Shown here: in pieces, positions 3,281 through 62,148 of the stretch
Layout of the letters: each line of letters begins with the position of its first letter
Numbering within the stretch: position 1 is the stretch's first letter
Assembly (NCBI GenBank): GCA_963749835.1
Contig: CAVVOD010000003.1
Span: 257,045-321,044 of the forward strand
Direction of reading: 5' to 3'
DNA: 64,000 nucleotides
Origin: an uncultured Acidobacteriota bacterium
GTDB lineage: Bacteria > Acidobacteriota > Vicinamibacteria > Vicinamibacterales > 2-12-FULL-66-21
Notes under the pieces: generated by a model
What the model was told of the DNA's origin: nothing
Databases searched by the model: none
The model's input: only the letters and a program-made list of their open reading frames with translations
Position numbers and translations under genes: made by a program

Positions 3281-3301
3281 CAGCTGTCAGCTGTCAGCTC
3301 T
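3281..3301. repeat. Heptamer tandem repeat CAGCTGT x3
   Basis: cagctgt cagctgt cagctct. It abuts the SDR start codon and lies between the SDR and mutarotase genes. Confidence 0.7.
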
Positions 3302-3334
3302 TAGCCTTTCAAGTTCTGATGTCTGAGCGCTCGC

Positions 3335-4477
3335 TCAGAACCCCGACGGTCGTACCCAGAAGCTCTCCTGCCAGGCGCCGCCCGGAGGAATGCTCTGCAG
3401 CTCCTTGTAGAGTCCCGTGTGCGCCAGGTTCATCGCGTTGGTGATCCCGGCCATCGGTTCGAAACAGATGTAATTCCGATTCTGATCGCCGTTGCTCCGG
3501 CCCCGTCCGCCTGCCGCCGCCGGCGGCCCGCCTGCAGGCGGAGCCGCTGCCGGTTTGGGCGCGTAAATCACGACCGAACGGTAGTTCGGTCCGAGCAGGA
3601 CGTCCAGCCGCTGCGACTTCCCTTTCAGGCTCATGACCGCACGGCCCGTCTCGTCGCGCACGAGATCTCCGAAGACGTGATCGAGGTCGAAGTCCTTCAG
3701 GAGAATGGCGTGAGGATCCGGCAGCAGCTTTTCGATCGGCTCCGTCTCACCGGTCGGGACCTTGTTCGCCGCCAGCAGCCATTGCGTCTTCGCGCCGATC
3801 GACACGGTCCAGTCCTCGCGCTTCGAATCCGTCAGCTGAAAATACGGGTGAAACCCAATCGCGACGGGCATTGGATCGGTGCTCAGGTTGACGATTCTTG
3901 TTGTGACCTGCAGCACGCCGTTCTGGAGCCGGTACGTCATGTCGATCGTGTGGGCGAACGGAAACTGTTTGATCCAGGCGGGATTCTTGTAGAAGTCGAG
4001 CCGGCTCGTCATCCACGCGCTCTTCCCGTCGGACTTCACCTCGGTGACCTGCCACAGGTTGGTGGTCGTCACGAATCCGTGAATCGGTATCGTGCCTCTG
4101 ACGTTGCCAAGCTGCATGTCGAACGCATAGCGCTGGCCGTTGGCATAGAACGCCTGTTCATCGAGCCGATTCGCCCAGGGTCCCAGAAACGGAATCCCGT
4201 TGAAGCCGCCCGCCCCTTTCGCCTTGAAGGCCTCAACCGATTCGAACGGGAAATACAGAACGTTCTGCCCCTTCACTTTCATCTCGAATGCCTTGTTGCC
4301 GGACGACGGGATGATGGACACGACCGTTTGTGCTTTCGTGTCCTCGAGCCGTACGACATCGCCTTCGCGCACCGCGCGATACGCAGGCGCCGCGACAGCC
4401 TCGGCGCCGCCAGCCATGAGGGATACCGCCAGCGCGAGACGTATCAGGTTGAGTGGCACTGATGTCTGTCCTTCCAC
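3335..4477 (-). CDS. Aldose 1-epimerase (mutarotase) family protein, exported
   Basis: 380 aa. Signal-like N-terminus LALAVSLMAGGAEAVAAP. Family-like segments IPFLGPWANRL, IPIHGF and GFHPYFQL. Contains a PAAAPPAGGPPAAAGGRGRS insert. Confidence 0.85.
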   Translation of the reverse strand: MEGQTSVPLNLIRLALAVSLMAGGAEAVAAPAYRAVREGDVVRLEDTKAQTVVSIIPSSGNKAFEMKVKGQNVLYFPFESVEAFKAKGAGGFNGIPFLGPWANRLDEQAFYANGQRYAFDMQLGNVRGTIPIHGFVTTTNLWQVTEVKSDGKSAWMTSRLDFYKNPAWIKQFPFAHTIDMTYRLQNGVLQVTTRIVNLSTDPMPVAIGFHPYFQLTDSKREDWTVSIGAKTQWLLAANKVPTGETEPIEKLLPDPHAILLKDFDLDHVFGDLVRDETGRAVMSLKGKSQRLDVLLGPNYRSVVIYAPKPAAAPPAGGPPAAAGGRGRSNGDQNRNYICFEPMAGITNAMNLAHTGLYKELQSIPPGGAWQESFWVRPSGF

Positions 4478-4480
4478 CCG

Positions 4481-7114
4481 TTACTGCACCCCACGGCCCG
4501 CGCCCCCACGGCCACGAATCGCCTGCAGCTCCGTGTCCGTCCATGGGCGCGTCCGCGTTTTCGTCATTCCGCGGATCTCCAGGACATCTTCCGCCTCGAC
4601 GGGCGACCCAGTATGCGCCCACTCCCGGCGGATGTACGTCAGGACGGACGCAATCTGCTCGTCATTGAGCGCGCTCCCCAGGGGGGGCATCAAACCGATG
4701 GTCCCCTCTTTGCCGGCAAGCAGCACGCGGGCGGCGGCCCCCGCATCGGGAGCCGTCACGTAGCGTGAGTTCACGAGACTCGGCGCGATCTTCTCTTTTC
4801 CCATGCCGTCCGGCTGGTGGCAACCGACGCAGAGGCTCTTATAGATGTCGGAGCCCGCATCATAGCGCCGCTGCTGCTCTGCGTTCAGTGGAACGGCGGC
4901 CGTCACCACCGCTGCAGGTTTGCCGGTCCAGTCCAGCTTCGCAGCCACGCGCTTCGCCACGCTTCCGGTCTCGTCGTTCACCGCAGCCAGCCGCGTAAGC
5001 TCGAGTGGCTCGGCCGGAAGCGCGACGAGCTTGACGGGCTGCGCGACACCGCGGCCTCCGCCACGCCCTCCGCGTCCGCCGCCCGCAGCGGGAAGGCCGG
5101 TGTCCAGCCCCTGCAGAAGTGCACTCCGCTGCCACGCGGGCGTCGCCTCATCGCCGGCGCGCGCCAGCAGGCGCTGCACCGACGGAACGATCGCGCTCTT
5201 CGCAACGGCGGCTGCCAGCATCGTCACGGCGTCAGCCTCGCCCGCGGCGGGATGCGACTGCAGCACGCGCTCGAGCACGTCTCCTTCCGCGCCCCGCAGC
5301 CCGCTGATTGTGGCATCCACCACAATCTCGTCGCTGCCGTAACGCGAGAGCAGGGTCACGGCAGGCTCGGTCCGCGCGGCCTGCGGCAGTTCACCCAGGC
5401 TCGCTCCAAGCTGGCGCCGCACGGTCCAGGACGGATCGTCCATCAGCTTGAGCACCCCTGCCGTCAGCGGGGCAGTGCCCTCGCGCAGCCAGCGTTCCGA
5501 CAGCCGAATCGCCGCGGCCCGCACGTCAGCGGATTTGTCGCCGAGCGACTTCTGCACGCTCGGCGCGTCGAGCGCGTCGAGGCCGTCCAGCGTCCACAGC
5601 GCGTGCAGCTTGACCCGCCAGTCGGACGTCTGTCCAAGGAGCTTCGTCAGGAGCGGCGTGGCCTCCTTCGCATAGCGCTCGACGATCAGCTGCTGCGCCG
5701 TGTCGCGCCACCAGCCGTTCGGATGCGACAGCGTCTGCACCAGCTGCGCGGTCGTCGCCTTCGAGAGTGCCGGCGCCCGATCGCGCCGCGTCGTATCGTG
5801 GACGATGCGCCAGATGCGGCCGTGCCCGATCGGCTGCTGGAGGTCTCCCGCTTTGATGTAATCCCGCAGATAGTCCGTCCAGTAGATGGCCTCCTGGACA
5901 ACCCCTCGATACATGTCGACGACGTACAGCGTCCCGTCGGGACCTCCGAGCAGGTTCACGGGCCGGAAACGCTCGTCCCATGACGCGAGGATCTCACCCT
6001 TCTTATAGCCGTCCACGGCGGTGAGACGGCCCGCGCCATCGTCCACCACCTTGTATCGATGCACGAGATTCGTCGTCGAGTCCGTAATGAACGCGTCGCC
6101 GTAGAGCTCCTTCGGCAACCGGTCTCCGCGATAGATGACGGGAGTGCCGACGCCCTGAATCGTGACCGAGCTGTCGTCGGGCCGGAAGAACTGATCGCGA
6201 TATCCACGATTCACGCCGCGCGTCGCCCGGATCGGCCAGATCGTCGAGGCCTCGCGCGAGATGAGTGGATCGTACAAACCGCGCGTGCGCGCCAGGTTCG
6301 GGTTCCGTGAGTAGTACCGTGCGGCCACGAAATCGACGAACAGCGGCGCGTCGTTCACATTCCGGTAGATCCGGCCCGCGTCGTCCTGTGTGGCGCCCCA
6401 CTGGCCGCGGCTGAGCGTCGGCTGCGTTTCGAACTTGCCGTCCTTCAGGCGGAGGTGCCAGTCGTGCTCGGACGTGTAGATCGTGTTGTCGAGTCCCCAG
6501 AACAGGCTGTTCGCGTTGTGCTCGATGCTCGCTTCCCCGCGTCCGTAGGTGTTGTTGACCAGTTCCCTGGTGTCAGCCTTGAGATCGCCGTCCGTGTCTT
6601 TCATGAGCCACAGGTTCGGCGGCTCGCCGACGAGGACGCCTTGATCGAGCACCTTCAGCGACCGGGGCAGCACCAGCTTGTCGGCAAACACCGTCCGTGT
6701 GTCCATCACGCCGTCGCCGTTCTTGTCCTCGAGGACGATCACGTTGTTGATCGGCTCGCGCAGATTCATCGCGTTCGCGCCGGCCATGAACCCCGGCATC
6801 TCCAGCACCCAGAGCCGTCCGTCCGCGTCGAAATCGATCGCAATCGGATCCATCACGAGCGGCTCTTTCGCGACGAGCTCCGCATGGTATCCGGGCGGCA
6901 GCGAGAACGTCTTCAACTCCTCCTCTGCTGTCAGCACGGGGGCTTTCGTGGGCGTCTTCCGGACGGGCGGAGGCCACGGTCCGCGCTGCGATCTTGCCCC
7001 GGCGGATCCTGACGCGGGCCGCGAGGCGCGGGCCTGGAACGCGTGCACGACGCCAATCGACGCAACCGCGAGGACAACGAGGCCGGCAGCGACACGGGGC
7101 TTGAGCAAGGGCAT
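4481..7114 (-). CDS. PVC-type haem-binding CxxCH protein with a membrane-bound-dehydrogenase-like N-domain and HEAT-like repeats (paralog 1, no discoidin tail)
   Basis: 877 aa with a signal peptide. N-domain LKTFSLPPGYHAELVAKEPLVMDPIAIDFDADGRLWVLEMPGFM. Also HPNGWWRDTAQQLIV, helical repeats, and a C-terminal cytochrome c motif CVGCHQPDGMG. Contains a GGGRGGRGGGRG insert and an RGRGGAGRG C-terminus. Confidence 0.85.
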   Translation of the reverse strand: MPLLKPRVAAGLVVLAVASIGVVHAFQARASRPASGSAGARSQRGPWPPPVRKTPTKAPVLTAEEELKTFSLPPGYHAELVAKEPLVMDPIAIDFDADGRLWVLEMPGFMAGANAMNLREPINNVIVLEDKNGDGVMDTRTVFADKLVLPRSLKVLDQGVLVGEPPNLWLMKDTDGDLKADTRELVNNTYGRGEASIEHNANSLFWGLDNTIYTSEHDWHLRLKDGKFETQPTLSRGQWGATQDDAGRIYRNVNDAPLFVDFVAARYYSRNPNLARTRGLYDPLISREASTIWPIRATRGVNRGYRDQFFRPDDSSVTIQGVGTPVIYRGDRLPKELYGDAFITDSTTNLVHRYKVVDDGAGRLTAVDGYKKGEILASWDERFRPVNLLGGPDGTLYVVDMYRGVVQEAIYWTDYLRDYIKAGDLQQPIGHGRIWRIVHDTTRRDRAPALSKATTAQLVQTLSHPNGWWRDTAQQLIVERYAKEATPLLTKLLGQTSDWRVKLHALWTLDGLDALDAPSVQKSLGDKSADVRAAAIRLSERWLREGTAPLTAGVLKLMDDPSWTVRRQLGASLGELPQAARTEPAVTLLSRYGSDEIVVDATISGLRGAEGDVLERVLQSHPAAGEADAVTMLAAAVAKSAIVPSVQRLLARAGDEATPAWQRSALLQGLDTGLPAAGGGRGGRGGGRGVAQPVKLVALPAEPLELTRLAAVNDETGSVAKRVAAKLDWTGKPAAVVTAAVPLNAEQQRRYDAGSDIYKSLCVGCHQPDGMGKEKIAPSLVNSRYVTAPDAGAAARVLLAGKEGTIGLMPPLGSALNDEQIASVLTYIRREWAHTGSPVEAEDVLEIRGMTKTRTRPWTDTELQAIRGRGGAGRGVQ

Positions 7115-8795: not shown

Positions 8796-8809
8796 TGAGG
8801 TTCCTTATG

Positions 8810-8835
8810 GCTGACAGCTGTTAGCTGTCGGCCGA
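8810..8835. repeat. Heptamer tandem repeat GCTGNNN (about 4 units)
   Basis: gctgaca gctgtta gctgtcg gccga. It lies between the stop of paralog 2 and the start of the PQQ dehydrogenase gene. Confidence 0.6.
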
Positions 8836-11598
8836 TCATTTCGTTCCGCCGACCGCCCACACCCGCACCTGCTGAATGCCCCAGGCCTCGCCATTCTGCG
8901 CCGAACCGGTCTGATTGATCCGAATGAACCGGGCCTGCGCGCGAGCAAACGATATCGTGGTCCTTGGAGTTGACCCGGGTCCCTGCGCGACAGGCGGTTG
9001 CCACGTGGTCCCGTCCATCGACACCTGGACACTGTACGCGACCGGCCCGACGGCCGCGGGACCACCGCCCCGGCCGCCGCGGCCGCGGCCTCCGGCGCCC
9101 TGAACGAACGAATCGATCTGGAGATCCGCGATCGTCGCCGGCTGCGGCAGCTCGATCTGGAACCACATGCCCGGCTGCTGAGGCGCGCCCGTGTCCCATC
9201 GCGCGCCCGGCGTTGCGCCGAGGACATTGACCGCCGCCGCCGTGTTGTGACTCGCGCTGACCTTCCATTCCGATGTGTTCGTCAGCGGCGCCGGAACCGT
9301 CGCGAGGAGCTCGGCGAGCGTCCACGGCGCTTTCCGCGGCGTGGCCTTGCGAACCGCCGCCACCTGATCGGATGTCACGAGACCCGCGGAGTTGCCGAAA
9401 CTGTTGCGCACATAGCTGGTGACGTCGGCCAGCCATCCGTCCGTATTGGTGCCCATCGGCACCATGACACCGCCGGGGTAGTTTTTGTCCTCGATGGGCC
9501 CTGTCAGGCCGTGGAGCAGCACCTTGATCGCATACTCGCGATGCCCTGCGACGCGTGGTGAGCCGGCCAGCGATGGCGCGAGCGTCATCCCCTCCGCACC
9601 GCCGGACATCGGCGCCCCCTTGCCATCGGGGGCATGACACGAACTACAGAGCTCCTTGTAAGTGCCTTCGCCGCGGACCATCGATTTCCGCTGGTCCGGC
9701 GAGAAGTTCATGAAGGTGGCTCCCGCGTCGGCGAGCGACGGCCTCTGCCCGAGGTATGCGCCGGGCTTGAGGATCTGCGCGCCGATCTCCTTCACCCCGC
9801 GCACCTGGCTCGCAGCAGCGGTTGCCGCGATGATCTTCGCCGCGTCAGGAACCTTCTGGAGGTTCAGCGTCAGCATCGCCTGGATGATCACGTTCGGATC
9901 GGCGTCCTCCGTCATCGCTCTGTAGTCCGTGGCGAATGACTTGTCCTTCGCCTTGTAGAGCGATTCGCTCGCGCGAATGGCCTGGATCCGGATCTGCGGA
10001 TCCGGGCTCTTCATCAGCTCACGCGCCAGCTTCGCGTCGAACGCCCCCAACCCCTCGAGGGTCCACAGCGCATGAATCCGTGCGAGCTGGTTCGCGGACC
10101 CGCGCGCCATCGTGAGCAGCGCGGGAACGACCGACTTGTCCTGGCCGAGCACCAGCAGCTTCTGGGCCGTGTCGCGCCACCAGCCGTTGGGATGTTCGAG
10201 ATGCGCCACGAGCTGCGCGGGCGTCTCGCTGTACATCCTGGGCGGCGTGAAGCCCGCCGGCTTGCTCTCATGGCTGATCCGCCAGACACGACCCCAGTTG
10301 TGCTGCTTGTCCAGTTCGTACTGATCGATCTTCTTCCGCAGGTACGAATTCGGACCGACGAACTGCGCGTCCTGGATGATACCGGTGTACATGTCCGACA
10401 GGTACAGTGTGCCGTCAGGCGCGTTCGAGATGCTGACGGGACGGAAGAGGGGATCCGTCGAGCGGATGAACTCCGATTTCGGATAGGCGTTCCGAAGCTG
10501 GGTCAGCCCGTCAGTGACCACGACTTTCGCGCGCCTCACGATGCGCCCGACCGGCTCGTTGAAGAAGAGGTCGCCGACGAGATCCGCGGGGAGACGATCG
10601 CCACGGTAAATTTCCACGCCCGACGCCGCCGTGAAATGATTCAGCGTCCCGTCGGGCATCCGCACCCGCCGCATGCCGCCCTGCATGTCCGCGATGCTCC
10701 CGGGAGCGGGCCAGGGGATCAGGAAGTCAGGCTCGAAGTTGTCCGGCACATTGAACGCGCCGTACGCAATCGGAGCCTGGATGTTGACCGGACCGAGCTC
10801 GCCACCGCCGTCCACCCACCACGTCTTCCCGTAATTGTCCTGCGCCGACCACCACTGCCCGCCGTTCGGCTCGGTCTCTTCGCGCAGGATCTTTCCGCCG
10901 GGCGCCATTCGCAGACGGTACGGGTTGTAGGTGGTGTAGATCCAGTTGTCGAGCGCCCACGTCATCCCGCCGGGCTGCCACTCCATGTTCTGGACGCGGC
11001 CGACCCCCTGGTAGAAGAGCTCCTTCTTGTCGGCAACGCCATCGCCATTCGTGTCGGTGTACTTGTAAAGGTCGCGATTGTCGGTTTCGAGGGCGAGGAT
11101 GACGCCGTCGCCCAGCGGAAAGGCAATCCGCGGCATCACCATGTTGTCGATGAACACGGTGTGCTTGTCGTACACGCCGTCTCCGTCCGTGTCCTCGTGG
11201 CGGGAGATGCGGGAGATCGGAGCGCGTGACTCGGAGCCCTCGGCGTCCCGCATGTACGAGCGCATCTCGAGCACGTACATCCTGCCGTTCCCGTCGAACG
11301 TGACGCCGACGGGATCCTGGATCAGCGGATCGGCGAGCACCGGCTCGATCCTGTATCCCTCGGGCAGCAGAAACAGCTTCTGTTGCGTCTCCGGGTCAAG
11401 CCGCACGACAGGTGGTCGCTTGAGAAAATCCGCACCAGCGGTTGCTTCGTCGAATCCGCCGCGGCCGGCCGGTTGCGGCGCGGCCGGTGCAGCCGGCGGT
11501 GGCTGGATTGGCGCCTGGGCGGCCTGCGTGAGAACGAGCGCGCTTGCGGCCAGGAGCACCACGACGAGCAAGCCGAGCCGAGGTCCGAACCGTTTCAT
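8836..11598 (-). CDS. PVC-type haem-binding CxxCH / dehydrogenase-like protein with a C-terminal discoidin (F5/8 type C)-like domain (paralog 2)
   Basis: The track ORF is 8836..11649. I moved the start to ATG 11598 (MKRFGPRLGLLVVVLLAASALVL signal peptide). Contains QQKLFLLPEGYRIEPVLADPLIQDPVGVTFDGNGRMYVLEMRSYM, HPNGWWRDTAQKLLVL and CSSCHAPDGKG. Tail: PGMWFQIELPQ...YSVQVSMDGTTW...ARFIRINQTG, with a GAGGRGRGGRGGG insert. Confidence 0.85.
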   Translation of the reverse strand: MKRFGPRLGLLVVVLLAASALVLTQAAQAPIQPPPAAPAAPQPAGRGGFDEATAGADFLKRPPVVRLDPETQQKLFLLPEGYRIEPVLADPLIQDPVGVTFDGNGRMYVLEMRSYMRDAEGSESRAPISRISRHEDTDGDGVYDKHTVFIDNMVMPRIAFPLGDGVILALETDNRDLYKYTDTNGDGVADKKELFYQGVGRVQNMEWQPGGMTWALDNWIYTTYNPYRLRMAPGGKILREETEPNGGQWWSAQDNYGKTWWVDGGGELGPVNIQAPIAYGAFNVPDNFEPDFLIPWPAPGSIADMQGGMRRVRMPDGTLNHFTAASGVEIYRGDRLPADLVGDLFFNEPVGRIVRRAKVVVTDGLTQLRNAYPKSEFIRSTDPLFRPVSISNAPDGTLYLSDMYTGIIQDAQFVGPNSYLRKKIDQYELDKQHNWGRVWRISHESKPAGFTPPRMYSETPAQLVAHLEHPNGWWRDTAQKLLVLGQDKSVVPALLTMARGSANQLARIHALWTLEGLGAFDAKLARELMKSPDPQIRIQAIRASESLYKAKDKSFATDYRAMTEDADPNVIIQAMLTLNLQKVPDAAKIIAATAAASQVRGVKEIGAQILKPGAYLGQRPSLADAGATFMNFSPDQRKSMVRGEGTYKELCSSCHAPDGKGAPMSGGAEGMTLAPSLAGSPRVAGHREYAIKVLLHGLTGPIEDKNYPGGVMVPMGTNTDGWLADVTSYVRNSFGNSAGLVTSDQVAAVRKATPRKAPWTLAELLATVPAPLTNTSEWKVSASHNTAAAVNVLGATPGARWDTGAPQQPGMWFQIELPQPATIADLQIDSFVQGAGGRGRGGRGGGPAAVGPVAYSVQVSMDGTTWQPPVAQGPGSTPRTTISFARAQARFIRINQTGSAQNGEAWGIQQVRVWAVGGTK

Positions 11599-11799
11599 CC
11601 GTTGAACCTTTCGCACCGGCGGGCGATGAGCGACTGGCCGAACGTGCACAATACCGCCACTCTGCAGGGGGGCGAAGCGCAGGAAGACGTCATTGTGACA
11701 ACAATCCGATGGCGATTACGAGCAAAGGCCGTCGGCCGTTTACCTGCCACGCCGACGGTCCCGGAGTCTTCCTCCGGCTGAAGCCGGAAGCTGCCAGTC

Positions 11800-11889
11800 G
11801 AGTCCCGAATCCCGAACCCGAATCCCGAACCCGAACCCGAGACCCGAGTCCCGAACCGATCCCCGATCCCCGATCCCTATTCCCGAGTT
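11800..11889. repeat. C3-tract tandem array (CCCGAAT/CCCGAAC/CCCGAGN/CCCCGAT units, about 13 C-tracts); G-rich on the minus (sense) strand
   Basis: gagtcccgaatcccgaacccgaatcccgaacccgaacccgagacccgagtcccgaaccgatccccgatccccgatccctattcccgag. It overlaps the stop codon of paralog 3. Confidence 0.85.
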
Positions 11890-14771
11890 TGCGCCGGCTG
11901 ATACACGCGGAATTTCTGGATCGACCACGACGCCGCGTCGTCGGGAGTCGCCGTTTGCGTGATGCGCACGAACTTCGCGGAAACCGGCGCGAACGTGATG
12001 ACGGTCGTCGTCCCCGCCCCCTGTCCTTCTGCGACCGGGCTCCACGAGGCACCATCACTCGATACCTGGACGGTATATGCCCGAGGAAACCCGGAGATCA
12101 TCGTGAATCCCCCGCGGCCGCCGAACTGTCCGGGCCCTGCGGCGCGCGCACCCGCCGGCGCACCAGCTCCTCGTCCTTGAACCGGAGTCGGACCCGGCCC
12201 CGGAGTCCCAGCTGTTCCGGGAGTTGCAGGGGCCGCGCCGCGAGCGCCCCTGCCGCCTGCGGGAGTCGCCGCGGAATCGAACTGGATCTCGGTGATGGAC
12301 GTGGCCGCCGGCAGCTCCACCTGGAACCACATGCCCGGCTGCTGAGGAGCGCCCGTGGACCATGTCCCCGTCGCCAGCGCATTCGCTGCGGCGTCGGGGT
12401 TATGGCTCGCCGTGGCCGTCCATGCTGGCTGCGACGCGAGGAGCACCGGGAGCGAGGCCTCGAGCTCGGCGACGGTCCAGGGCGTGTTGCGATTCGCATC
12501 CGCGGCCCGTGCCCGCGCGACATCCGCCGGTGAGATCAGGGACGCACTGTTCCCAAGGCTGGTCCGAACGTACGACGTCACGGCCGCCATCCAGTCGTCC
12601 TTGTTGGTGCCCATCGGCACCATGACGTCGGTGTAGGTGGTGCCCTGCACGGGCCCCGTCAGTCCGTGCAGCACCGCCTTGATCAGATAATCGCGATGCC
12701 CCAGCACGCGCGGCGAGCCCGTGAGCGGCGGCGCCTTCATCGTCCCGGCCGGCGCTCCATCGACGGGCATGCCCTTTCCGTCCGGTCCGTGACAGGCCGA
12801 GCACAGCTCCGCGTAAATGCCCGCCCCCTCCTGAACGAGCGCCTGCTCCGCCGGCGTCACGGGACCGCCCCGGCCACCGCCGCCGAATCCACCGCCAGTC
12901 GTCGGCGGACGCAGCATCAGGTTGCCGATCTCCTGCACGCCGCGCGCCTTGTTTGCGGCCTGCGCGGCCGTGACTACCTCTTTGAGATCCGCCGCCTTGA
13001 ACAGCTTCAGCGTCAGCATCGCCTGGAGGCTGACGCGCGCGTCCTCATCCTTCGCAAGCTGACGGAAGTCCGCATCGAACGACGTGTCCCCGGCTTTGTA
13101 GAGGGATTCGCTCACACGGATGGCCTGAACCCTGACGAGCGGGTTCAGATCCTTCATCAGGGCGCGCGCCAGCGCCGCGTCGAGTGCGCCAAGCCCTTCG
13201 AGCGTCCACATCGCATGAAAACGTCCCAGCACGCTGGTCGAGTTGCGCGCCATGACCTGCAGCGCGGGCACGACCGACGTGTCCTGACGGAGCACGAGCA
13301 GCTTCTGCGCCGTGTCGCGCCACCAGCCATTCGGATGATCGAGATGCGCGACGAGCTGCGCCGGCTTCTCGTCGAGCATGCGCGGCTGCGTCCGATCCGG
13401 TTCGATGCCGTCGTACACGAGACGCCAGATTCGGCCGTGGCTGATGACTTTGTCGAGCTGAAGCTGGTGAATTTTTGCGCGCAGATACGATCCAGGTTCC
13501 GTCCACTGCGATTCCTGGATGATGCCGTGGTACATGTCCACGATATACAGCGTGCCGTCGGGGGCCGTCGCCATGTTCACGGGTCGGAACAGCGGATCCA
13601 GGCTCAGGATGAACTCGGAATTCGGATAGGGATTGCGCAGCTGCGTGAGCCCCTCGGTCACCACCACCTTCGAGCGTCGAACGAGCCGTCCCACCGGCTC
13701 GGCGAAGATCAGATCGCCACGGAGATCCGCCGGCAGCCTGTCGCCCCGGAATATGTCGGGACCACAGGTGGCGGTGAAATGATTCAGCACCCCGATCGGC
13801 ATCCGGACGCGGCTCATGCCTCCCTGCATGTCGGCGATACTGGGCGCCGGCCACGTCACCTCGAACCCCGGCTCGAACTGGTCCGCCACGTTGAAGGCGC
13901 CGTACACGATCGGCGTCTGGAAATTGAGCGGGCCGCGTTCGCCCCCCGCGTCGACGAACCAGGGCTTGCCGTGATCGTCCTGCGTCAGCCCCCACTGCCC
14001 GAAATTCGGAGCGGTCGGTTCCTTGATCACGCCACCCGGCGTCCAGCGGATCCGGAAGGCGTTGTAGGTGCTGTAGATCCAGTTGTCCAGCGCCCAGATG
14101 AACCCGCTCTGCTGGTGCTCGAGATTCCCACGCCGCCCGGCGCCGCTGAAGAACAGCTCCTTCTTTTCTGCGACACCGTCGCCCGTCGTGTCCGTGTACT
14201 TGAAAATATCGTCCGCGTCGGTCTCCATCGTCAGCACGCTGCCCTTGTCGAGAGGGAGGATGAACCGCGGCAGGACCAGCTTGTCGATGAACACGGAGTG
14301 ACGATCGAAGGTGCCGTCGCCTTTCGTGCTCTCGTGCATGCTGATGCGGCTCACGGGCTCGAACTCGCGGCTGCCGTCGACGTCGAGCATGTAGCTGCGC
14401 ATCTCGTTCACGTAGAGCCGGCCATTGCCGTCGAACGCGATCGCGGTTGGATTGATGATCTCCGGATCGGAGAGCACCAGCTCCATCCGGTAGCCGGGGG
14501 GCAGGATGAAGCGCTTCTGCTGCTCCTCCGGCGTGAGCGGCTGGACGGGCGGTTTCGGGGAAAAGTCTCCAGCCATCGGCTGGTTTCCTCGAGCCGGACC
14601 CTGGGCCGGCGCTCCCTGGCCACTCCGGCCTGCCGGCGCGGGGCCGGACGCCGGTGCGGGCGCCTGCGGTGCGCCTTGCGGCTGGGCAAACACCGTCAAA
14701 CACGCGAGCCACACCAGCGACACGATCGGCACCCACGTTTTCGACAGCTTTTTCGTTTTCATTTCTGGCAT
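11877..14771 (-). CDS. PVC-type haem-binding CxxCH / dehydrogenase-like protein with a discoidin-like tail (paralog 3)
   Basis: The track ORF is 11877..15134. The likely start is ATG 14771 or 14762 (MPEMKTKKLSKTWVPIVSLVWLACLTVFAQ). Contains QQKRFILPPGYRMELVLSDPEIINPTAIAFDGNGRLYVNEMRSYM, HPNGWWRDTAQKLLVL and CSACHGPDGKG. Tail: PGMWFQVELP...YTVQVSSDGASW...AKFVRITQTA, interrupted by a long GGRG/Pro-Ala insert. Confidence 0.85.
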   Translation of the reverse strand: MPEMKTKKLSKTWVPIVSLVWLACLTVFAQPQGAPQAPAPASGPAPAGRSGQGAPAQGPARGNQPMAGDFSPKPPVQPLTPEEQQKRFILPPGYRMELVLSDPEIINPTAIAFDGNGRLYVNEMRSYMLDVDGSREFEPVSRISMHESTKGDGTFDRHSVFIDKLVLPRFILPLDKGSVLTMETDADDIFKYTDTTGDGVAEKKELFFSGAGRRGNLEHQQSGFIWALDNWIYSTYNAFRIRWTPGGVIKEPTAPNFGQWGLTQDDHGKPWFVDAGGERGPLNFQTPIVYGAFNVADQFEPGFEVTWPAPSIADMQGGMSRVRMPIGVLNHFTATCGPDIFRGDRLPADLRGDLIFAEPVGRLVRRSKVVVTEGLTQLRNPYPNSEFILSLDPLFRPVNMATAPDGTLYIVDMYHGIIQESQWTEPGSYLRAKIHQLQLDKVISHGRIWRLVYDGIEPDRTQPRMLDEKPAQLVAHLDHPNGWWRDTAQKLLVLRQDTSVVPALQVMARNSTSVLGRFHAMWTLEGLGALDAALARALMKDLNPLVRVQAIRVSESLYKAGDTSFDADFRQLAKDEDARVSLQAMLTLKLFKAADLKEVVTAAQAANKARGVQEIGNLMLRPPTTGGGFGGGGRGGPVTPAEQALVQEGAGIYAELCSACHGPDGKGMPVDGAPAGTMKAPPLTGSPRVLGHRDYLIKAVLHGLTGPVQGTTYTDVMVPMGTNKDDWMAAVTSYVRTSLGNSASLISPADVARARAADANRNTPWTVAELEASLPVLLASQPAWTATASHNPDAAANALATGTWSTGAPQQPGMWFQVELPAATSITEIQFDSAATPAGGRGARGAAPATPGTAGTPGPGPTPVQGRGAGAPAGARAAGPGQFGGRGGFTMISGFPRAYTVQVSSDGASWSPVAEGQGAGTTTVITFAPVSAKFVRITQTATPDDAASWSIQKFRVYQPAQTRE

Positions 14772-14838
14772 AACCCCTATCGCCGCGCCGACCCGGCGCT
14801 CAGCCTTCGGCACGTCGTCACCGCACAGCGAACGACTG

Positions 14839-14860
14839 TCGATGCAATCGTTTGCATCGA
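14839..14860. promoter_or_regulatory. Candidate LacI-family operator (perfect 9-bp inverted repeat around a CG-centred core)
   Basis: TCGATGCAA-TCGT-TTGCATCGA. The inner 14-mer TGCAATCGTTTGCA fits the generic LacI/GalR half-site pattern TGNAA.CG.TTNCA. It lies in the divergent region between paralog 3 (start 14771) and lacI. Confidence 0.5.
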
Positions 14861-16007: not shown

Positions 16008-16041
16008 CGGGATTCGGGGGGGCGGGATTCGGGGCTCGGGC
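16008..16041. repeat. G-tract array (GGGATTCGGG-type), plus-strand G-rich
   Basis: cgggattcgggggggcgggattcggggctcgggc, with five G3+ tracts. It lies between the lacI stop and the beta-helix gene and is the reverse-complement family of the CCCGAAT arrays. Confidence 0.6.
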
Positions 16042-33150: not shown

Positions 33151-33296
33151 GAGCTATCAGCTGACAGCTATCAGCCCTCAGCTTCGCCTGCAGTTTCGAG
33201 TTCCGCGTCAGTTCCCAGTCTTCCGCTTCCAGGTCCCATTCTTTGGCTACTGGACCGGTTACGGCGCCGCTGATAGCTGACAGCTGAAAGCTCCGA
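33151..33296. repeat. Heptamer arrays arranged as inverted arms (CAGCTAT-type left, GCTGATA-type right) around CAGTTTC-type units
   Basis: Left arm: gagctat cagctga cagctat cagccct cagcttc. Centre: cagtttcgagttccgcgtcagttcccagtcttccgcttccaggtcc. Right arm: gctgata gctgaca gctgaaa gctccga. It fills part of the gap between the paralog 4 stop and the Gfo start. Confidence 0.7.
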
Positions 33297-36320: not shown

Positions 36321-36350
36321 TCAGCTCTCAGCTTTCAGACCTCAGCTCAG
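36321..36350. repeat. Heptamer tandem repeat TCAGCTC-type x4
   Basis: tcagctc tcagctt tcagacc tcagctc ag. Confidence 0.6.
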
Positions 36351-38211: not shown

Positions 38212-38264
38212 CGCACACCCTGGCCCGCCTTCGCCGCCAAGCGGCTACAGCCTGGCGCGCCGCT

Positions 38265-38328
38265 GGCACCTTGGCACCTTGGCACTCTGGCACCGTGGCA
38301 CCTTGGCACCCTGGCACTTCGGCGCCCT
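38265..38328. repeat. Octamer tandem repeat GGCACCTT x8
   Basis: ggcacctt ggcacctt ggcactct ggcaccgt ggcacctt ggcaccct ggcacttc ggcgccct. It lies in the divergent region between DUF1080 (start 38211) and xylA. Confidence 0.9.
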
Positions 38329-38373
38329 GTCTGATTGCGCGCAGTCCGCGTCCCCGAGTAATCTAGCGCGTTC

Positions 38374-39618: not shown

Positions 39619-39798
39619 ATCAGCCGTCAGCAATCGGCTCTCAGCTATCAGCTATCAGCACGGACTGAAGGTTAAGAGCAGAAACCTGAGACCTTGTATT
39701 GCCAGTTTCCAGTAGCCAGTTTCCAGTGGCCGGCCGGGGACTGGGAACCGATGACTGGCAACTGGGAACTGAACTGACCACTGAGAGCTGAGAGCTGA
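39619..39798. repeat. Composite intergenic repeat block: TCAGCTA heptamers, a CCAGTTT/ACTGGGA inverted arm pair, GAGAGCT heptamers
   Basis: atcagccgtcagcaatcggctctcagctatcagctatcagca ... gccagtttccagtagccagtttccagtggccggccggggactgggaaccgatgactggcaactgggaactgaactgaccactgagagctgagagctga. It fills the xylA-xylB gap from 3 nt after the stop to 5 nt before the ATG. Confidence 0.75.
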
Positions 39799-39802
39799 AT
39801 TT

Positions 39803-42047: not shown

Positions 42048-42136
42048 GGGATCAGGGATCAGGGATCAAAATCGTGGGTTCTTCAGAATCCCAATCCCCA
42101 ATCCCGAGCCCCGAATCCCGAGTCCCGAATCCCGAT
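42048..42136. repeat. GGGATCA x3 followed by an AATCCC/GAATCCCGA C-tract array (inverted arrangement) between convergent genes
   Basis: gggatcagggatcagggatca aaatcgtgggttcttcag aatcccaatccccaatcccgagccccgaatcccgagtcccgaatcccga. Confidence 0.8.
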
Positions 42137-47106: not shown

Positions 47107-47143
47107 CTAATCCCCAATCCCGAATCCCCAATCCCGAGTCCGG
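47107..47143. repeat. C-tract array AATCCCC/AATCCCG x4 (G-rich on the minus strand, 5' of the permease gene)
   Basis: ctaatccccaatcccgaatccccaatcccgagtccgg. Confidence 0.7.
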
Positions 47144-47243
47144 CCAATTACACCACGACCCGTTGCCGTTCGTTGGCGGGCCCGGCGCTGAGGGGTCGCC
47201 GGTGGCCCTGGCACATGGCTCAACCGTCGCGTGTGCCCCGGAA

Positions 47244-47306
47244 GCACGTGGCACGTAGCACGTAGCACGTAGCACGTAGCACGTAGCACGTAGCACGTAG
47301 CACGTG
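47244..47306. repeat. Heptamer tandem repeat: GCACGTG + GCACGTA x7 + GCACGTG (9 units)
   Basis: Counted base by base from line 47221. There are seven identical GCACGTA units flanked by two CACGTG-containing units. The array ends 12 nt before ATG 47319. Confidence 0.95.
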
Positions 47307-51712: not shown

Positions 51713-51790
51713 CAGGGTGCCAGGGGTGCCAGGGGTGCCAGGGGTGACCAGGGGTGACAGGGCGACAGGGCGACAGGGCGACAGGGCGAC
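51713..51790. repeat. G-tract tandem array: (GGGGTGCCA)x3, (GGGGTGAC[C]A)x2, (GGGCGACA)x4
   Basis: cagggtgccaggggtgccaggggtgccaggggtgaccaggggtgacagggcgacagggcgacagggcgacagggcgac. It starts 2 nt after the stop codon. Confidence 0.85.
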
Positions 51791-55545: not shown

Positions 55546-55707
55546 GTGTATTGAGTGTAATCCCCCAACACTACTTCGTCAAACCCGGTGGTCCAGCGAT
55601 CTGCCGTCTCACCGTCGCAGTCCCGTTTCTGAGGCACTTCAAGTCCTATCGTCAGCTCAGCCGCAGGCATCCTGTACGATGGTCCCGCAAAATTCACCGG
55701 AGGGCAG

Positions 55708-58429
<2,722 letters not shown>

Positions 58430-58579
58430 CCCGTCTCGACACGGCCCGCGGGCGTTGCAAAAAAGAGAACTGTTTCGACCGGCGCGGCGTACGGGGTTGC
58501 ACTCACGGATGTTGCAGAGCCCGTGCCACGCGGTTTTCGTGAATGGCGGGCCCACTCTTCTGTCTGGCTCGGGCTTTGA

Positions 58580-58963
58580 CTACTTCGAAGGACGGCGCAG
58601 TGTCTTCTTCTTCGCGGCCTTCTCCTTCATGAGTGCTTCGGCGATTTCGGCCATCGCAAAAGTGCGTTCGTCGTCCAGGGATCGGATGGCCGGTTGATTC
58701 CACCAGGAGCGCCTGGGAGACGGGCTCGTCTCGTCCCAGTGGTTCATCACGGCATCGAACATTCGCCCTTCTGCCAATTCGACAACATCGTCATCGTGGT
58801 AGAACTCGTCGTCGAGCCGCCGTTTCAAGTGAAACGGCACTACCTCCTTCCACCTTTGATCACCGACCTTTCTGTTGAGCGTGCGTCGCATGGTGTCGCG
58901 GAACTCAGCAACGCGTGCCGGGGATCCAAGCACTACCAGGCGATTGAGGTAAGTCACAGACAT
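58580..58963 (-). CDS. Hypothetical protein (127 aa), lower-GC
   Basis: The ORF has codon-like third-position bias. MSVTYLNRLVVLGSPARVAEFRDTMRRTLNRKVGDQRWKEV... with a Lys-rich C-terminus. No family recognised. Confidence 0.45.
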   Translation of the reverse strand: MSVTYLNRLVVLGSPARVAEFRDTMRRTLNRKVGDQRWKEVVPFHLKRRLDDEFYHDDDVVELAEGRMFDAVMNHWDETSPSPRRSWWNQPAIRSLDDERTFAMAEIAEALMKEKAAKKKTLRRPSK

Positions 58964-58980
58964 TCGGTTCTCCGCTTGAA

Positions 58981-58997
58981 GCTGATAGCTGATAGCT
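58981..58997. repeat. Heptamer repeat GCTGATA x2 (+ partial)
   Basis: gctgata gctgata gct. It lies in the divergent gap between the hypothetical gene and vapB. Confidence 0.5.
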
Positions 58998-59035
58998 ATG
59001 TTGACATCTGATGCGTGATGCGAGATGTTAACGAG

Positions 59036-61002: not shown

Positions 61003-61110
61003 TCACACATTACACCACACATTTGTCTGTGTGGACAAGTACTGCCAAGCTGGCACGTCGCTGCCAGCTCTTGACCGGCCCGGGGTCTGGCAGCGGTAGG
61101 GGACAGCGCG

Positions 61111-62064
61111 CTATCCCGCCGCCGTGACCTCGTCGTAAGCGGGCCCGAGCGGACGGGCGATCAGCGGGCCGTAGTCCTCGAAGCCTTTGATGATGTCGGT
61201 TGACGCCACGATCTGTTCGCGGGTCTTCCCTGCCTTCACCTGTGAGCGGACGTATTCGAGGAGCGCCGTCAGGTAGGTCGCATGATGATTGAGGTCGGCG
61301 CGGCTGCCGGTCACATCGAACTTCGGGCCTGCGTGGCCGAAGATGTAGATCGTATCCGCGGGCAGCTCCGCCGCGACCTTCTGGAGCACCACCGTCCAGT
61401 TCGCGATCGACGCGCCGTTCGTGCGGTCGATCACCGGGTGCGCGCGGTTGAACATCAAGTCCCCCATGTGCGCGACGTTCGCCCTTTCGAAGACGATCAC
61501 GACATCGCCGCCTGTGTGCGCAGAACCGTAGTGCTTCACAGATACGCGCTCGTCGCCGTGGTCGAATGCCAGGGCGTCCGTCAGCGTCTTGTCTGGAACC
61601 ACGGGCTCCGTCGGCGCAGGTGTTGTCGGCGCCGGTTTCTGCTCCGCGCGCCGCGACATGGCGAGCTCGAAGCTGGACTTCATGTACTTCGGCACGTTCG
61701 CGTGGCCGATGATCTGCTTCGTCTTTGGCCGGAACACGCCGTTGCCGCCGGTATGGTCGCCGTGATGATGACTGTTGACGAGCGTCGCGATGTCGGTCTT
61801 GCCCGACGTCTTCAACAGCTGCTCGACGCATAGCGCCGCGGTGTCGGGAAACTGGCTGTCGACCGCCACCACGCCTGTCGGATTGATGAGCCACCCGATT
61901 GTCCCGCCGCGCGCCGTCCAGTACCCGGTGTTCCGCCTGATCTCTTTGAACACCGGCGTAACCGGTTCTGGTGGCTGCTGGCCAAACAGCGTCAGCCGCC
62001 CGGAAGTGCTGGCCGCGATCGCGGCGGTGGAGGTCGCGAGGAAGTGACGGCGTGAGATAGGCAT
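61111..62064 (-). CDS. MBL-fold metallo-hydrolase with a twin-arginine signal
   Basis: 317 aa. MPISRRHFLATSTAAIAASTSG and NSHHHGDHTGGN. Confidence 0.85.
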   Translation of the reverse strand: MPISRRHFLATSTAAIAASTSGRLTLFGQQPPEPVTPVFKEIRRNTGYWTARGGTIGWLINPTGVVAVDSQFPDTAALCVEQLLKTSGKTDIATLVNSHHHGDHTGGNGVFRPKTKQIIGHANVPKYMKSSFELAMSRRAEQKPAPTTPAPTEPVVPDKTLTDALAFDHGDERVSVKHYGSAHTGGDVVIVFERANVAHMGDLMFNRAHPVIDRTNGASIANWTVVLQKVAAELPADTIYIFGHAGPKFDVTGSRADLNHHATYLTALLEYVRSQVKAGKTREQIVASTDIIKGFEDYGPLIARPLGPAYDEVTAAG

Positions 62065-62077
62065 GGGGGAGATGATA

Positions 62078-62148
62078 CAGCTATCAGACTTCAGCTATCA
62101 GCTATGAGTGGTCAGCCTGAAAGCTGACCGCTGATGGCTGACGGCTGG
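62078..62148. repeat. CAGCTAT heptamers, a perfect 7-bp hairpin, then GCTGA-type units (inverted arrangement)
   Basis: cagctatcagacttcagctatcagctatgag t GGTCAGC ctgaaa GCTGACC gctgatggctgacggctgg. Confidence 0.7.

Follow-up and report, generated by a model that had tools for sequence, protein, structure and literature searches.

Genes and repeat arrays of the window

The window analysed here, a 64,000-nt stretch of DNA from an uncultured bacterium of the class Vicinamibacteria (order Vicinamibacterales, phylum Acidobacteriota), encodes sugar-metabolism enzymes, ABC transporters, dehydrogenases and similar proteins; a Pfam scan of about 40 of its proteins returned no transposase, RAYT (Y1 transposase) or cas domains. 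Several window genes carry apparent frameshifts where their counterparts in a related metagenome assembly, L001, are intact, so the window consensus is not error-free. Between the genes lie tandem arrays of 7-, 8- or 9-nt units, listed below with their state in L001 and in two other independent assemblies, L002 and L003; "TRF" marks arrays reported by that program, and folding values are predictions.

3280..3301, no strand assigned: (TCAGCTG)x2.9 (TRF), adjoining the start codon of an SDR gene (2492-3280, minus strand); in mRNA sense it reads AGCTGAC AGCTGAC AGCTG, followed directly by ATG.
8809..8835, no strand assigned: weak array GCTGACAGCTGTTAGCTGTC, a small palindrome of three imperfect units under the TRF threshold, which fills the 40-nt spacer of two minus-strand genes (hairpin -16.1 kcal/mol, z -4.5).
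11799..11889, minus strand: about 12 units of the CCCGAAT/CCCGAAC type (TRF), G-rich on the sense (minus) strand, with three G4 motifs; overlaps the stop codon of the gene at 11877-15134.
16008..16041, plus strand: weak G-rich element of two GGGATTC units flanking a G-run, with one G4 motif, in a divergent gap; not reported by TRF.
33151..33296, minus strand: inverted pair of (TCAGCTN)x4.6 at 33152-33183 and (NAGCTGA)x3.4 at 33269-33292 (TRF), separated by degenerate CAGTTNC sequence (fold -65 kcal/mol, z -4.05); in sense orientation the NAGCTGA arm stops 2-3 nt short of the GTG start of the gene at 31964-33148.
36321..36350, no strand assigned: (TCAGCTN)x4 (TRF), unpaired, flanked by two minus-strand genes.
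38263..38329, no strand assigned: (TGGCACCT)x8, period 8 (TRF), in a divergent gap, predicted unstructured (z +1.85); conserved in L001, with 8-nt indels.
39619..39798, plus strand: nested inverted arrays (TRF) filling the gap of two plus-strand genes. Outer arms are (TCAGCNN)x6 at 39619-39660, 2 nt past the stop, and (CTGAGAG)x2.6 at 39781-39798, with ATG 4 nt further on; inner arms are of CCAGTTT type (39701-39731) and ACTGGGA type (39736-39771). L002 keeps the inner pair; L001 has the interior replaced.
42048..42136, no strand assigned: inverted pair of (GGGATCA)x3 and (GAATCCC-type)x7 (TRF; fold -56.3 kcal/mol, z -4.6), conserved in L001 and L002. The gap is convergent, judged by called L001 orthologues, and the transcript of either strand has a G-rich array just past its stop.
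47107..47143, minus strand: (AATCCCC/AATCCCG)x4-5 (TRF), 10 nt upstream of the start of a minus-strand permease gene and G-rich (GGGGATT) on its sense strand; about 9.6 units in L001 against about 5 here.
47243..47306, plus strand: (GCACGTA)x9 (TRF), partly self-complementary (z -2.8), 12 nt ahead of the ATG of an ABC transporter gene; L001 has a (GCACGTA)n array, L003 a degenerate one and L002 none.
51713..51790, plus strand: (GGGGTGCCA)x5 of period 9, then (GGGCGACA)x5 of period 8 (TRF), with two G4 motifs, in a convergent gap; starts 2 nt past the stop that the L001 orthologue uses. At the orthologous site L001 has CCAGGGTG x8 and L003 has AGGTGCCA(G) x7.
58980..58997, no strand assigned: (AGCTGAT)x2.6 (TRF), in a divergent gap with a TTGACA box just downstream; L001 has TGACGGC/TGATAGC units here.
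62078..62148, minus strand: inverted pair of (CAGCTAT)x4 and (GCTGACN)x3.6 (TRF), filling the 88-nt spacer of two minus-strand genes (fold -34.8 kcal/mol, z -4.7).

A preliminary description of this DNA had named units in 17 intervals, and these units are present in all 17, at most of them with a TRF period of 7, 8 or 9. Four intervals are weaker or had to be redescribed: 8810-8835, 16008-16041, 33186-33235 (a degenerate CCAGTTT stretch, to which TRF assigns period 21 at 33201-33243) and 39701-39772, where CCAGTTT-type units do occur, as an inverted pair of arrays rather than a single one. Its statement that most gaps are filled was too strong: 13 of the 36 gaps of at least 25 nt, about a third, bear arrays (about 40% once gaps artefactual to gene calls are removed), and all arrays together make up about 11% of intergenic bases. 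Restriction of a few unit families to intergenic DNA is borne out, with period-7 arrays covering 538 of 5921 intergenic bp (9.1%) versus 32 of about 58,000 coding bp (0.06%). Such arrays covered 534 bp of the real gaps, whereas in 100 dinucleotide-preserving shuffles they averaged 4.5 bp and never exceeded 40 bp.

TRF reports 19 period-7 arrays in the window, three of period 8 and one intergenic array of period 9 (51715-51762). The period spectrum has its maximum at 7 both here and in 75 related loci, and periods 5, 6, 10 and 11 have no comparable excess in either set. Intergenic DNA of the related loci (1.29 Mb in all) carries 28.9 bp/kb at period 7, 6.8 at period 8 and 1.4 at period 6; their coding DNA carries 1.7 bp/kb at period 7.

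The arrays adjoin gene boundaries, as had been described. They start 0-5 nt past stops at 39619, 51713, 8835 and 62148, and they end 0-13 nt short of starts at 3281, 33151, 39798, 47107, 47306 and 62078. Genes of all kinds have them upstream and downstream, and divergent gaps show no depletion (4 of 8 bear arrays, though these are small numbers). Array-free gaps hold ordinary small hairpins, and a consensus scan of 20 kb of the window found no enrichment of canonical terminators or sigma-70-like promoters.

Units, array length and inverted pairing

At least five unrelated unit families, as well as periods 8 and 9, occur within this one 64-kb window. TCAGCTN-type units are found at 8 sites and GGGATTC/GGGGATT-type units at 4-5, and the non-G-rich families (TCAGCTN, GCACGTA, CCAGTTT and TGGCACCT) are as common as the G-rich ones. 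The choice of units is not random: TCAG/CTGA occurs 25 times in units where 6.5 occurrences are expected, and GATT/AATC 21 times where 5 are expected. These cores, TCAG/CTGA and GATT, are also common to units of the 75 related loci. Unit repertoire varies by lineage, with a TCAGC core (variants TCAGCTN, TCAGCAA, TCAGCCA) conserved across Vicinamibacterales lineages, and in L002 the unit families of the window are present at other sites too.

Array length has its mode at 4 units by two detectors, for G-rich and other units, and in host and viral loci alike; rather than decaying monotonically, lengths peak at about 4 and fall steeply beyond 5. Because non-G-rich units prefer the same length, G4 formation is not the sole reason for it. 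Of the 9 canonical (G3+N1-7)x3 G3+ sequence motifs of the window, 8 lie inside arrays, namely the G-rich ones.

Where a G-rich array follows a gene end by no more than 60 nt, the G-rich strand is the sense strand in 10 cases versus 1, and in the clade of the window the stop-bearing orientation NAGCTGA adjoins start codons and TCAGCTN comes after stops. Strand bias overall is weak (co-directional gaps, 27 vs 27 in host and 87 vs 58 in viral loci), and other Vicinamibacterales lineages have related arrays in either orientation. It had been pointed out that a stop triplet in units of 7 or 8 nt passes through every reading frame in the course of three units, which is correct; we find nothing to give it importance, given the free orientation in other lineages and the weak strand bias.

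Many arrays are paired with an inverted copy and would thus form hairpins, a feature that the preliminary description had overlooked. If an inverted partner is defined as the same unit on the opposite strand within 150 nt, 45 of 183 host arrays (about a quarter) have one, versus 8 with a direct partner, and among 448 viral arrays 81 have an inverted and 12 a direct one, so that inverted partners outnumber direct partners 5- to 7-fold. Inverted pairs are predicted to form long hairpins with periodic mismatches; their median z is -6, and z is below -3 in 90-95% of cases (-4 to -4.7 for window pairs). They persist at orthologous gaps down to 83% protein identity. Intrinsic terminators are GC-rich hairpins with a U-tract directly behind them at a gene end; the inverted pairs give predicted hairpins (z -4 to -6), and a U-tract comes after 2 of 21 host and 8 of 39 viral pairs. 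For about 70% of arrays no inverted partner was detected; these fold no better than shuffles (median z -0.4 to -0.8), and the non-G-rich ones among them lack a structural explanation.

Turnover in relatives and occurrence in phages

The arrays recur at orthologous positions in L001, L002 and L003, which answers the concern that they might have been created by assembly or sequencing. That the window consensus contains errors speaks for such an artefact, but independent assemblies of other samples have the same arrays in the same places, the arrays are shorter than one read, and (GCACGTA)n occurs at many loci with varied flanks in soil-metagenome contigs; we regard an artefact as practically excluded.

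Comparison of the window with L001 shows indels of 8, 21 and 28 nt and exchanged units in the arrays, whereas array-free gaps differ by substitutions and 1-nt indels only. Whole units have been gained or lost between near-identical relatives with flanks about 95% identical, and at 83% protein identity 2 of 4 orthologous gaps no longer have the array or have a different one, as expected under neutral turnover. Phage contigs carry the same arrays as the host at higher density. In one bona fide head module of a phage (L104), nearly every gene is set off from the next by an array or array hairpin, with clear Shine-Dalgarno sequences downstream.

Variation in copy number between close relatives might suggest phase variation, with flanking genes turned on and off as a promoter or leader gains and loses units, and three arrays (47107-47143, 47243-47306 and 58980-58997) do lie between a likely promoter and a start codon. 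However, the arrays are flanked by ordinary genes of metabolism and transport in a free-living soil bacterium, as against the surface, restriction or virulence genes that contingency tracts control; many arrays lie past stop codons or in convergent gaps, and published work on this kind of repeat also took a negative view. We consider contingency tracts very improbable.

Another possibility is that the arrays are a functionless mutational by-product, slippage products persisting in non-coding DNA where they do no harm, with the hairpin pairs arising by quasi-palindrome or template-switch copying. Rapid turnover by unit-scale indels, loss and replacement at orthologous gaps, lineage-specific repertoires, the weak overall strand bias and the absence of a link to particular gene classes all fit this reading, as does the polymerase-related slippage of heptamers that Mrazek is reported to have proposed. 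It is harder to reconcile with identical units at unlinked loci and in phage contigs, the non-random choice of units, the length peak near 4 with its sharp drop after 5, the excess of inverted over direct partners and the sense-strand preference of G-rich arrays past stops. We see neutrality as possible, if on balance unlikely.

The arrays could alternatively be remnants or ends of small mobile elements, the inverted pairs being either MITE-like terminal inverted repeats made of tandem transposase-binding sites or preferred insertion targets. Arms on opposite strands at variable distance, identical arms at many loci including those of phages, IS elements at a fixed distance from such sites in Geobacter metallireducens (PMC2700814), and a 3.4-kb indel in the window with one end 13 nt from an array are all compatible with this. 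Against it, no two pairs enclose the same sequence, the window pairs show no evident target-site duplications, most arrays are unpaired, single units change in situ, and no transposase was found among the roughly 40 window proteins scanned. We judge a mobile origin improbable, and MITEs proper are rejected by the unrelated interiors and missing target-site duplications despite the inverted arms.

Relation to known repeats and possible roles

We identify the window arrays, with high confidence, as intergenic heptanucleotide repeats of the LSSR / STRR type: they consist of head-to-tail 7-nt units (sometimes 8 or 9 nt), are almost restricted to non-coding DNA, recur at dispersed sites, vary in unit number and favour about 4 units, and their G-rich strand is the coding strand just past stops, the pattern of Rehm et al. 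(2015). Such arrays are known from cyanobacteria, Xanthomonas, Beggiatoa and Geobacter and have not been described in the Vicinamibacteria lineage. The preliminary claim that nothing equivalent had been described is thus mistaken, given STRR, heptanucleotide LSSRs and the repeats of PMC4692102, PMC4679880 and PMC2700814.

One close parallel is G. metallireducens, for which Aklujkar et al. (2009; PMC2700814) list GTTGCTYN x4 (24 pairs), TCTCCGTS[Y] x3 (21 pairs), MTYCTGA x5 (8 pairs) and GGACCGG x4 (49 loci) and propose that the sites bind IHF/HU-type regulators. As in the window, there are several families per genome with 7-, 8- or 9-nt units in 3-5 tandem copies, mostly as opposite-strand pairs at variable distance, in intergenic DNA including that between genes of one operon, and sites present in one species are missing from a close relative; MTYCTGA has a CTGA core in common with window units. 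G. metallireducens belongs to another phylum and has other unit sequences, its GGACCGG elements also lie within genes, unlike the window arrays, and that account does not cover phage occurrence, G4 content or length variation between strains.

The Xanthomonas GGGAATC and Nostoc GGGGA(C/T)T repeats (Rehm et al. 2015; PMC4692102) are likewise strongly intergenic heptamers with a preference for four units, unit numbers that vary at the same sites in related genomes, and a G-rich strand that is the coding strand within 50 bp past the stop, at times overlapping it; general metabolic genes are involved and inverted copies are noted. The AATCCCC array of the window is GGGGATT on its other strand, matching the Nostoc unit. 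Rehm et al. treat a single G-rich family, to which the window adds equally common non-G-rich ones, and array-bearing divergent gaps are not depleted here, unlike in their data. TAACTGA direct repeats of marine Beggiatoaceae, some Cyanobacteria and Bacteroidetes (MacGregor 2015; PMC4679880) differ by one base from the TAGCTGA of the window, which is not a direct repeat in the Beggiatoaceae genome studied there. They too contain stop triplets, stand immediately ahead of start codons at the expected place of a ribosome-binding site, and are patchily spread across phyla. That study concerns one unit, whose sets drop monotonically in number from 2 copies up, with one inverted set in 170 and a predicted lack of structure; the window has a variety of units, numerous inverted pairs and a strong predicted structure, and its arrays also occur past stops.

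As described in later papers, the STRR of cyanobacteria are tandem heptanucleotides of few families scattered in non-coding DNA (Mazel et al. 1990), reported inside the RNase P RNA gene too, and heptamers are the most abundant class of long SSR in many large GC-rich genomes (Mrazek et al. 2007). The window resembles them in its few families of tandem heptanucleotides in non-coding DNA and differs in lineage. We take STRR1 to be CCCCA(A/G)T, which as an array is identical to AATCCCC of the window; for STRR and long SSRs we know of no systematic account of inverted pairing or phage occurrence.

REP/BIME elements of enterobacteria and pseudomonads have one palindromic consensus of 20-40 nt and are spread by a RAYT transposase. 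The window arrays are like them in being intergenic, after stop codons and between cistrons, and in their imperfect hairpins, which are here predicted. They have no single conserved 20-40-nt imperfect palindrome; their stems are tandem 7-nt units with a variable seventh base, loops are unrelated, arm lengths vary by locus, units drift between lineages and most arrays are non-palindromic. CRISPRs are ruled out by the contiguous 7-9-nt units with no spacers, as against 23-50-nt repeats with unique spacers, and by the lack of cas domains in the Pfam scans.

The published proposals for Geobacter and for TAACTGA suggest that arrays may be multivalent binding sites, in which a factor contacts one 7-nt unit per subunit or domain and about four at once. 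Candidates would be the RNA binders proposed for TAACTGA (ribosomal protein S1, cold-shock or CsrA-like proteins) or a nucleoid protein of the IHF/HU kind, and the sites would form a regulon-like network copied by phages. The conserved TCAGC core, the preference for about 4 units whatever the unit, the sharing of units with phage contigs and the polarity of arrays in the window clade favour such a factor. Yet with at least five unrelated families and periods 8 and 9 in one 64-kb window, several factors or a very loose specificity would be required; polarity is lost in other lineages, arrays stand on both sides of all kinds of genes, and no candidate protein has been identified. Binding sites therefore seem to us rather unlikely.

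The account that we favour, at about even chances, is that the arrays are born by slippage, are confined to non-coding DNA and are retained as structural punctuation of transcripts. Arrays would arise and turn over by replication slippage, 7-nt loops being larger than MutS-type repair handles, and would survive only between genes because seven is not a multiple of three. They would be retained and shaped because they give transcripts structure in 5' leaders, intercistronic spacers and 3' trailers: hairpins of inverted pairs and G-quadruplexes of G-rich arrays would punctuate transcripts by 3'-end protection, by U-less termination or pausing, and by uncoupling neighbouring cistrons. Plain slippage does not account for the return of the same units at unlinked loci and in phage contigs, or for a mode near 4 units. 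The functional part of this account is more tentative than the whole, and we put it forward well short of even chances. As a functional analogue we propose enterobacterial REP/BIME, which act in mRNA 3'-end protection and attenuation; the window arrays may act comparably.

Somewhat less likely even than separate binding sites, in our estimate, is that the arrays are cis-elements of one dedicated system common to Vicinamibacteria, perhaps other soil bacteria, and their phages, with a factor that reads 7-nt steps, about four at once. If so, that factor would set the unit repertoire of each lineage and a quantum of about 28 nt, inverted pairs would be the high-affinity or structural form that marks gene boundaries in transcripts or DNA, and the recurrence of GGGGATT and of TAACTGA/TAGCTGA/MTYCTGA across phyla would reflect a conserved partner rather than chance.

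In practice, arrays of this kind cause breaks in short-read assemblies and wrong calls of gene starts, and they can serve as markers for strain typing. Arrays of intergenic heptanucleotides have been on record since 1990, and the window adds a new host at the level of phylum, the abundant and barely cultured soil class Vicinamibacteria. Here several unrelated units of one genome have a common period, a common length of about 4 units and frequent inverted pairing; the length preference is not tied to G-quadruplex potential, the published explanation, and in predicted phage genomes almost all genes of a head module are separated by the same arrays. Taken together, the findings on units, length and phages narrow the possible explanations, and suggest that something fixes period and length independently of sequence.

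Heptameric arrays between ordinary chromosomal genes

Coding DNA excludes the arrays. In the window, period-7 arrays cover 538 of the 5921 intergenic bases (9.1%) vs 32 coding bases (0.06%), and period-8 arrays cover 1.6% of intergenic vs 0.03% of coding bases. Period-7 coverage of the gaps was 534 bp; across 100 dinucleotide-preserving shuffles of them it averaged 4.5 bp, with a maximum of 40 bp. With a second detector on the window, intergenic DNA was not enriched at periods 4, 6, 10, 11 or 12, and was slightly enriched at period 5. Coverage, shuffles and period spectrum together establish the arrays as genuine, intergenic and specifically of 7-nt period, with 8- and 9-nt neighbours.

The units named in the preliminary description were found in every interval that it listed, most of them also being reported by TRF, and its placement of the arrays at gene ends holds as well: many start 0-5 nt past a stop codon and end 0-13 nt ahead of a start. 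Four of its intervals are nevertheless weak or were mis-described:

8810-8835, a small palindrome
16008-16041, two units flanking a G-run
33186-33235, degenerate
39701-39772, an inverted pair (two arrays of the same unit on opposite strands)

Its statement that most gaps are filled was too strong, as arrays occur in 13 of the 36 gaps of at least 25 nt and occupy ~11% of intergenic bases.

The surrounding genes, 56 as called from third-position G+C, make up 90.7% of the window, G+C stays at 62-68% throughout, and scans of the window returned no Rfam match and no tRNA gene. By domain annotation the products are of ordinary chromosomal kinds: sugar-related enzymes (glucose/sorbosone dehydrogenase, 3-keto-disaccharide hydrolases, xylose-isomerase-like TIM barrels, GFO/IDH/MocA oxidoreductases), phosphofructokinase and FGGY kinase, ABC transporters, a TonB-dependent receptor with a CarboxypepD_reg domain, VapBC pairs and methyltransferases. 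Homologues of one window transporter are metagenomic only, and the 80 closest genome records are nearly all MAGs labelled Acidobacteriota, Vicinamibacteria or Vicinamibacterales. Four large paralogues of 877-1085 aa share one architecture, DUF7133 / HEAT / cytochrome c (/ F5-8 type C), and three of them are consecutive, beside a cytochrome-c-fused glucose/sorbosone dehydrogenase:

4481-7114, DUF7133-type paralogue
8836-11649, DUF7133-type paralogue
11877-15134, DUF7133-type paralogue
33469-36261, DUF7133-type paralogue

Longer tandem repeats, with periods that are multiples of three, are a phenomenon distinct from the heptamer arrays:

19159-19259, 24 nt x4.2, in a stretch left uncalled by the rough gene call that may be coding
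667-750, 18/36 nt x4.3, inside a called gene

Whole-unit turnover at orthologous sites

Three syntenic contigs of relatives were recovered from other samples, as independent metagenome assemblies:

L001, 97% protein and 95-96% DNA identity to the window
L003, 90% protein identity
L002, 83% protein identity

The arrays are not an artefact, and they turn over by whole units, as at these sites:

47098-47303, first array: ~5 AATCCCS units in the window; 9.6 CCCGAAT/CCCGAGT units in L001; the L003 contig stops short of the array; none in L002
47098-47303, second array: 9 GCACGTA in the window and 9 in L001; a degenerate GCACGTA array in L003; none in L002
51713: GGGGTGCCA then GGGCGACA in the window; CCAGGGTG x8 in L001; AGGTGCCA(G) x7 in L003; L002 not syntenic here

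In pairwise alignments of the window with L001, indels within arrays measure 6-8 nt and ~21 nt; array-free gaps, together with the array-free core of an array gap, are ~95% identical and carry indels of 1 nt only. The gap at 39631-39800 is wholly replaced between the window and L001. At the 83% protein identity of L002, arrays are retained in 2 of 4 orthologous gaps, as a GGGATCA/AATCCCC pair and a CCAGTNN/NNACTGG pair, and the window's unit families also occur at other sites of that contig. The window genome itself was absent from all public sequencing runs, the best of which had 17% of words in common with it, and in one soil metatranscriptome two weak contigs fell on a coding region and none on the arrays.

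Comparison with the relatives also brought out several features separate from array turnover. L001 lacks a 3.4-kb segment of the window (55615-58968) that carries a small ORF and a gene for a TonB-dependent receptor, the flanks being 95-96% identical; 13 nt separate the segment's right end from the GCTGATA array at 58980. Three window genes look frameshifted, either with an intact orthologue in L001 or as two overlapping halves, and may reflect consensus errors of long-read assembly or pseudogenes:

39803-41297, FGGY kinase, 347 aa plus a second ORF vs 497 aa in L001
55708-58429, TonB receptor, two overlapping ORFs
49490-51711, ankyrin/PQQ protein, 710 aa vs 739 aa

Three other kinds of repeat were seen. 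The separate dispersed repeat GGGGACACTCACCTTTAC, for which zero copies are expected by chance, occurs three times in the gap 27217-27378, twice in direct and once in inverted orientation, and once more at 36264, and is absent from the 151 fetched loci. A REP-like small hairpin, CTTCCGCC-TGAA-GGCGGAAG, stands beside heptamer arrays or in their place, and one inverted array pair of L002 has it as its loop. Direct repeats TGATGCG TGATGCG AGATG, conserved in L001 and L003, lie directly past a TTGACA box and 5' of a small ORF paired with a PIN-domain gene, and look like an antitoxin operator and not like one of the heptamer arrays.

27219-27236, 27267-27284, 27341-27358 (-) and 36264-36281, copies of GGGGACACTCACCTTTAC
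~11768-11790 in the window (variant), and ~875-895, 935-955 and 4578-4600 in L002, the REP-like hairpin
59009-59027 in the window, 18367-18385 in L001 and 8656-8679 in L003, the TGATGCG direct repeats

Spread among lineages and in phage contigs

The intergenic period-7 excess recurs over 75 related high-G+C loci (1.29 Mb), as a trait of the lineage.

Tandem-repeat coverage by period in the 75 related loci, in bp per kb
Period 6: intergenic 1.4, coding 1.7
Period 7: intergenic 28.9, coding 1.7
Period 8: intergenic 6.8, coding 1.8
Period 9: intergenic 6.4, coding 4.9
Period 14: intergenic 8.3, coding 0.9

Heptamer arrays are nearly absent (one weak array in all) from lower-G+C loci (0.54-0.57) labelled Binatia, Deltaproteobacteria or Chloroflexota and from a Myxococcaceae genome. 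Lineages have unit cores in common without having identical units: TCAGCTN in the window clade, TCAGCAA in six loci and TCAGCCA/TCAGCCC in three. Single-linkage clustering of units gave one chained, uninformative cluster, and k-mer enrichment was used instead; among 116 locus-unit combinations, compared with random intergenic heptamers, TCAG/CTGA was observed 25 times vs 6.5 expected, GATT/AATC 21 vs 5, and CAAT/ATTG 19 vs 3.6. Soil and permafrost metagenome contigs at 47210-47317 reach 64-760-fold depth on (GCACGTA)n vs ~3-fold on its flanks, and soil contigs with this array run into many unrelated flanks. The array-only depth and the variety of flanks show (GCACGTA)n to be a common sequence of soil communities, present at many loci.

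When IMG/VR was searched for exact matches to four TCAGCTN units, 68 stretches (L084-L151) came up. Heptamer arrays of many unit families saturate these predicted phage contigs (57-72% G+C), in many of them at far higher density than in the window. An array is present in 149 of the 289 viral gaps of at least 40 nt, and coverage is 135 bp per kb intergenic vs 8.6 bp per kb coding, a density biased upward because the loci were picked for containing one such array. One of these contigs, L104 (1-14652), is a true phage head module with a head maturation protease, a scaffold protein and a major capsid protein, the last a distant relative of cultured-phage capsids; of its 14 gaps, 11 contain arrays or inverted-array hairpins, usually with a clear Shine-Dalgarno sequence between them and the next start. 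No host could be assigned to the array-rich viral contigs by blastn against Vicinamibacterales loci, which matched arrays alone, or by capsid comparison, in which the nearest cultured-phage capsids were at most 32% identical. The viral contigs had no match to (GCACGTA)x4.

Structure, known counterparts and possible role

Arrays are frequently paired in inverted orientation. Of 183 arrays across loci, 45 lie within 150 nt of an inverted partner of the same unit, vs 8 with a direct partner. The window holds:

33152-33183 with 33269-33292, inverted pair
62078-62105 with 62117-62148, inverted pair
42048-42068 with 42086-42136, inverted pair
39619-39798, two nested inverted pairs

As RNA, the window pairs are predicted to form strong hairpins (z of -4.05 to -4.7 relative to shuffled sequence; 0 of 200 shuffles folded as well), and predicted folds of pairs across loci have a median z of -6, with a mismatch at about every seventh base of the stem. 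A U-tract follows 2 of 21 host inverted pairs, and canonical terminators and sigma-70-like promoters were not in excess in a consensus scan of 20 kb. Unpaired arrays fold no better than shuffles; those that are G-rich contain 8 of the 9 canonical G4 motifs predicted in the window. Strand bias over all arrays is weak, though G-rich arrays directly after stops favour the sense strand 10 to 1. Arrays of the window clade read TCAGCTN after stops and NAGCTGA next to starts; a consistent transcription-strand polarity of TCAGC arrays was rejected, since it does not extend to lineages outside that clade. We also set aside a sigma-54 reading of the TGGCACCT array, whose -12 element is by eye out of register, and a HutP-like (NAG-N4)n reading of TAGCTGA arrays, which leaves other units unexplained.

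Array length has its mode at ~4 units and falls steeply past 5. This mode is the same with two detectors, in G-rich and non-G-rich units, and without the pattern used to pick the viral loci. Beyond a general preference for 4-5 units, copy numbers in the two arms of a pair show no clear correlation.

The preliminary description knew of no equivalent; there are several, in cyanobacteria, Xanthomonas, Nostoc, Beggiatoaceae, Bacteroidetes and Geobacter metallireducens. Later papers relay the finding of Mrazek et al. (2007) that in many genomes no class of long SSR is more abundant than heptanucleotides, and their proposal of a polymerase-related slippage bias. STRR heptamers are reported from Calothrix and Nostoc. 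GGGAATC in Xanthomonas and GGGGA(C/T)T in Nostoc are intergenic and variable in number, with four units preferred, and lie on the coding strand directly after stops; they formed G4 in vitro (Rehm et al. 2015, PMC4692102). TAACTGA repeats stand immediately 5' of start codons in Beggiatoaceae, Cyanobacteria and Bacteroidetes (MacGregor 2015, PMC4679880). The closest match to the window's array architecture is Geobacter metallireducens, with paired opposite-strand sites of 3-5 tandem 7-9-nt units in several families, proposed to bind global regulators, as well as GGACCGG x4 at 49 loci (Aklujkar et al. 2009, PMC2700814). We found nothing relevant in the literature on repeats in Acidobacteria or Vicinamibacter. 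The arrays are a heptanucleotide SSR system of an already known type, in a new lineage.

Plain neutrality of the arrays would match their fast turnover, but it does not fit four features, leaving unexplained the recurrent units, their non-random composition, the peaked length and the surplus of inverted partners. We favour a history in which arrays would be born by slippage and purged from coding DNA, because a 7-nt change there is a frameshift. Between genes they may be kept as transcript punctuation, by means of hairpins and G4 in leaders, at transcript 3' ends and in the spacers separating cistrons. It is also possible that some factor reads the array sequence in a 7-nt register, which if true would be the most interesting outcome.
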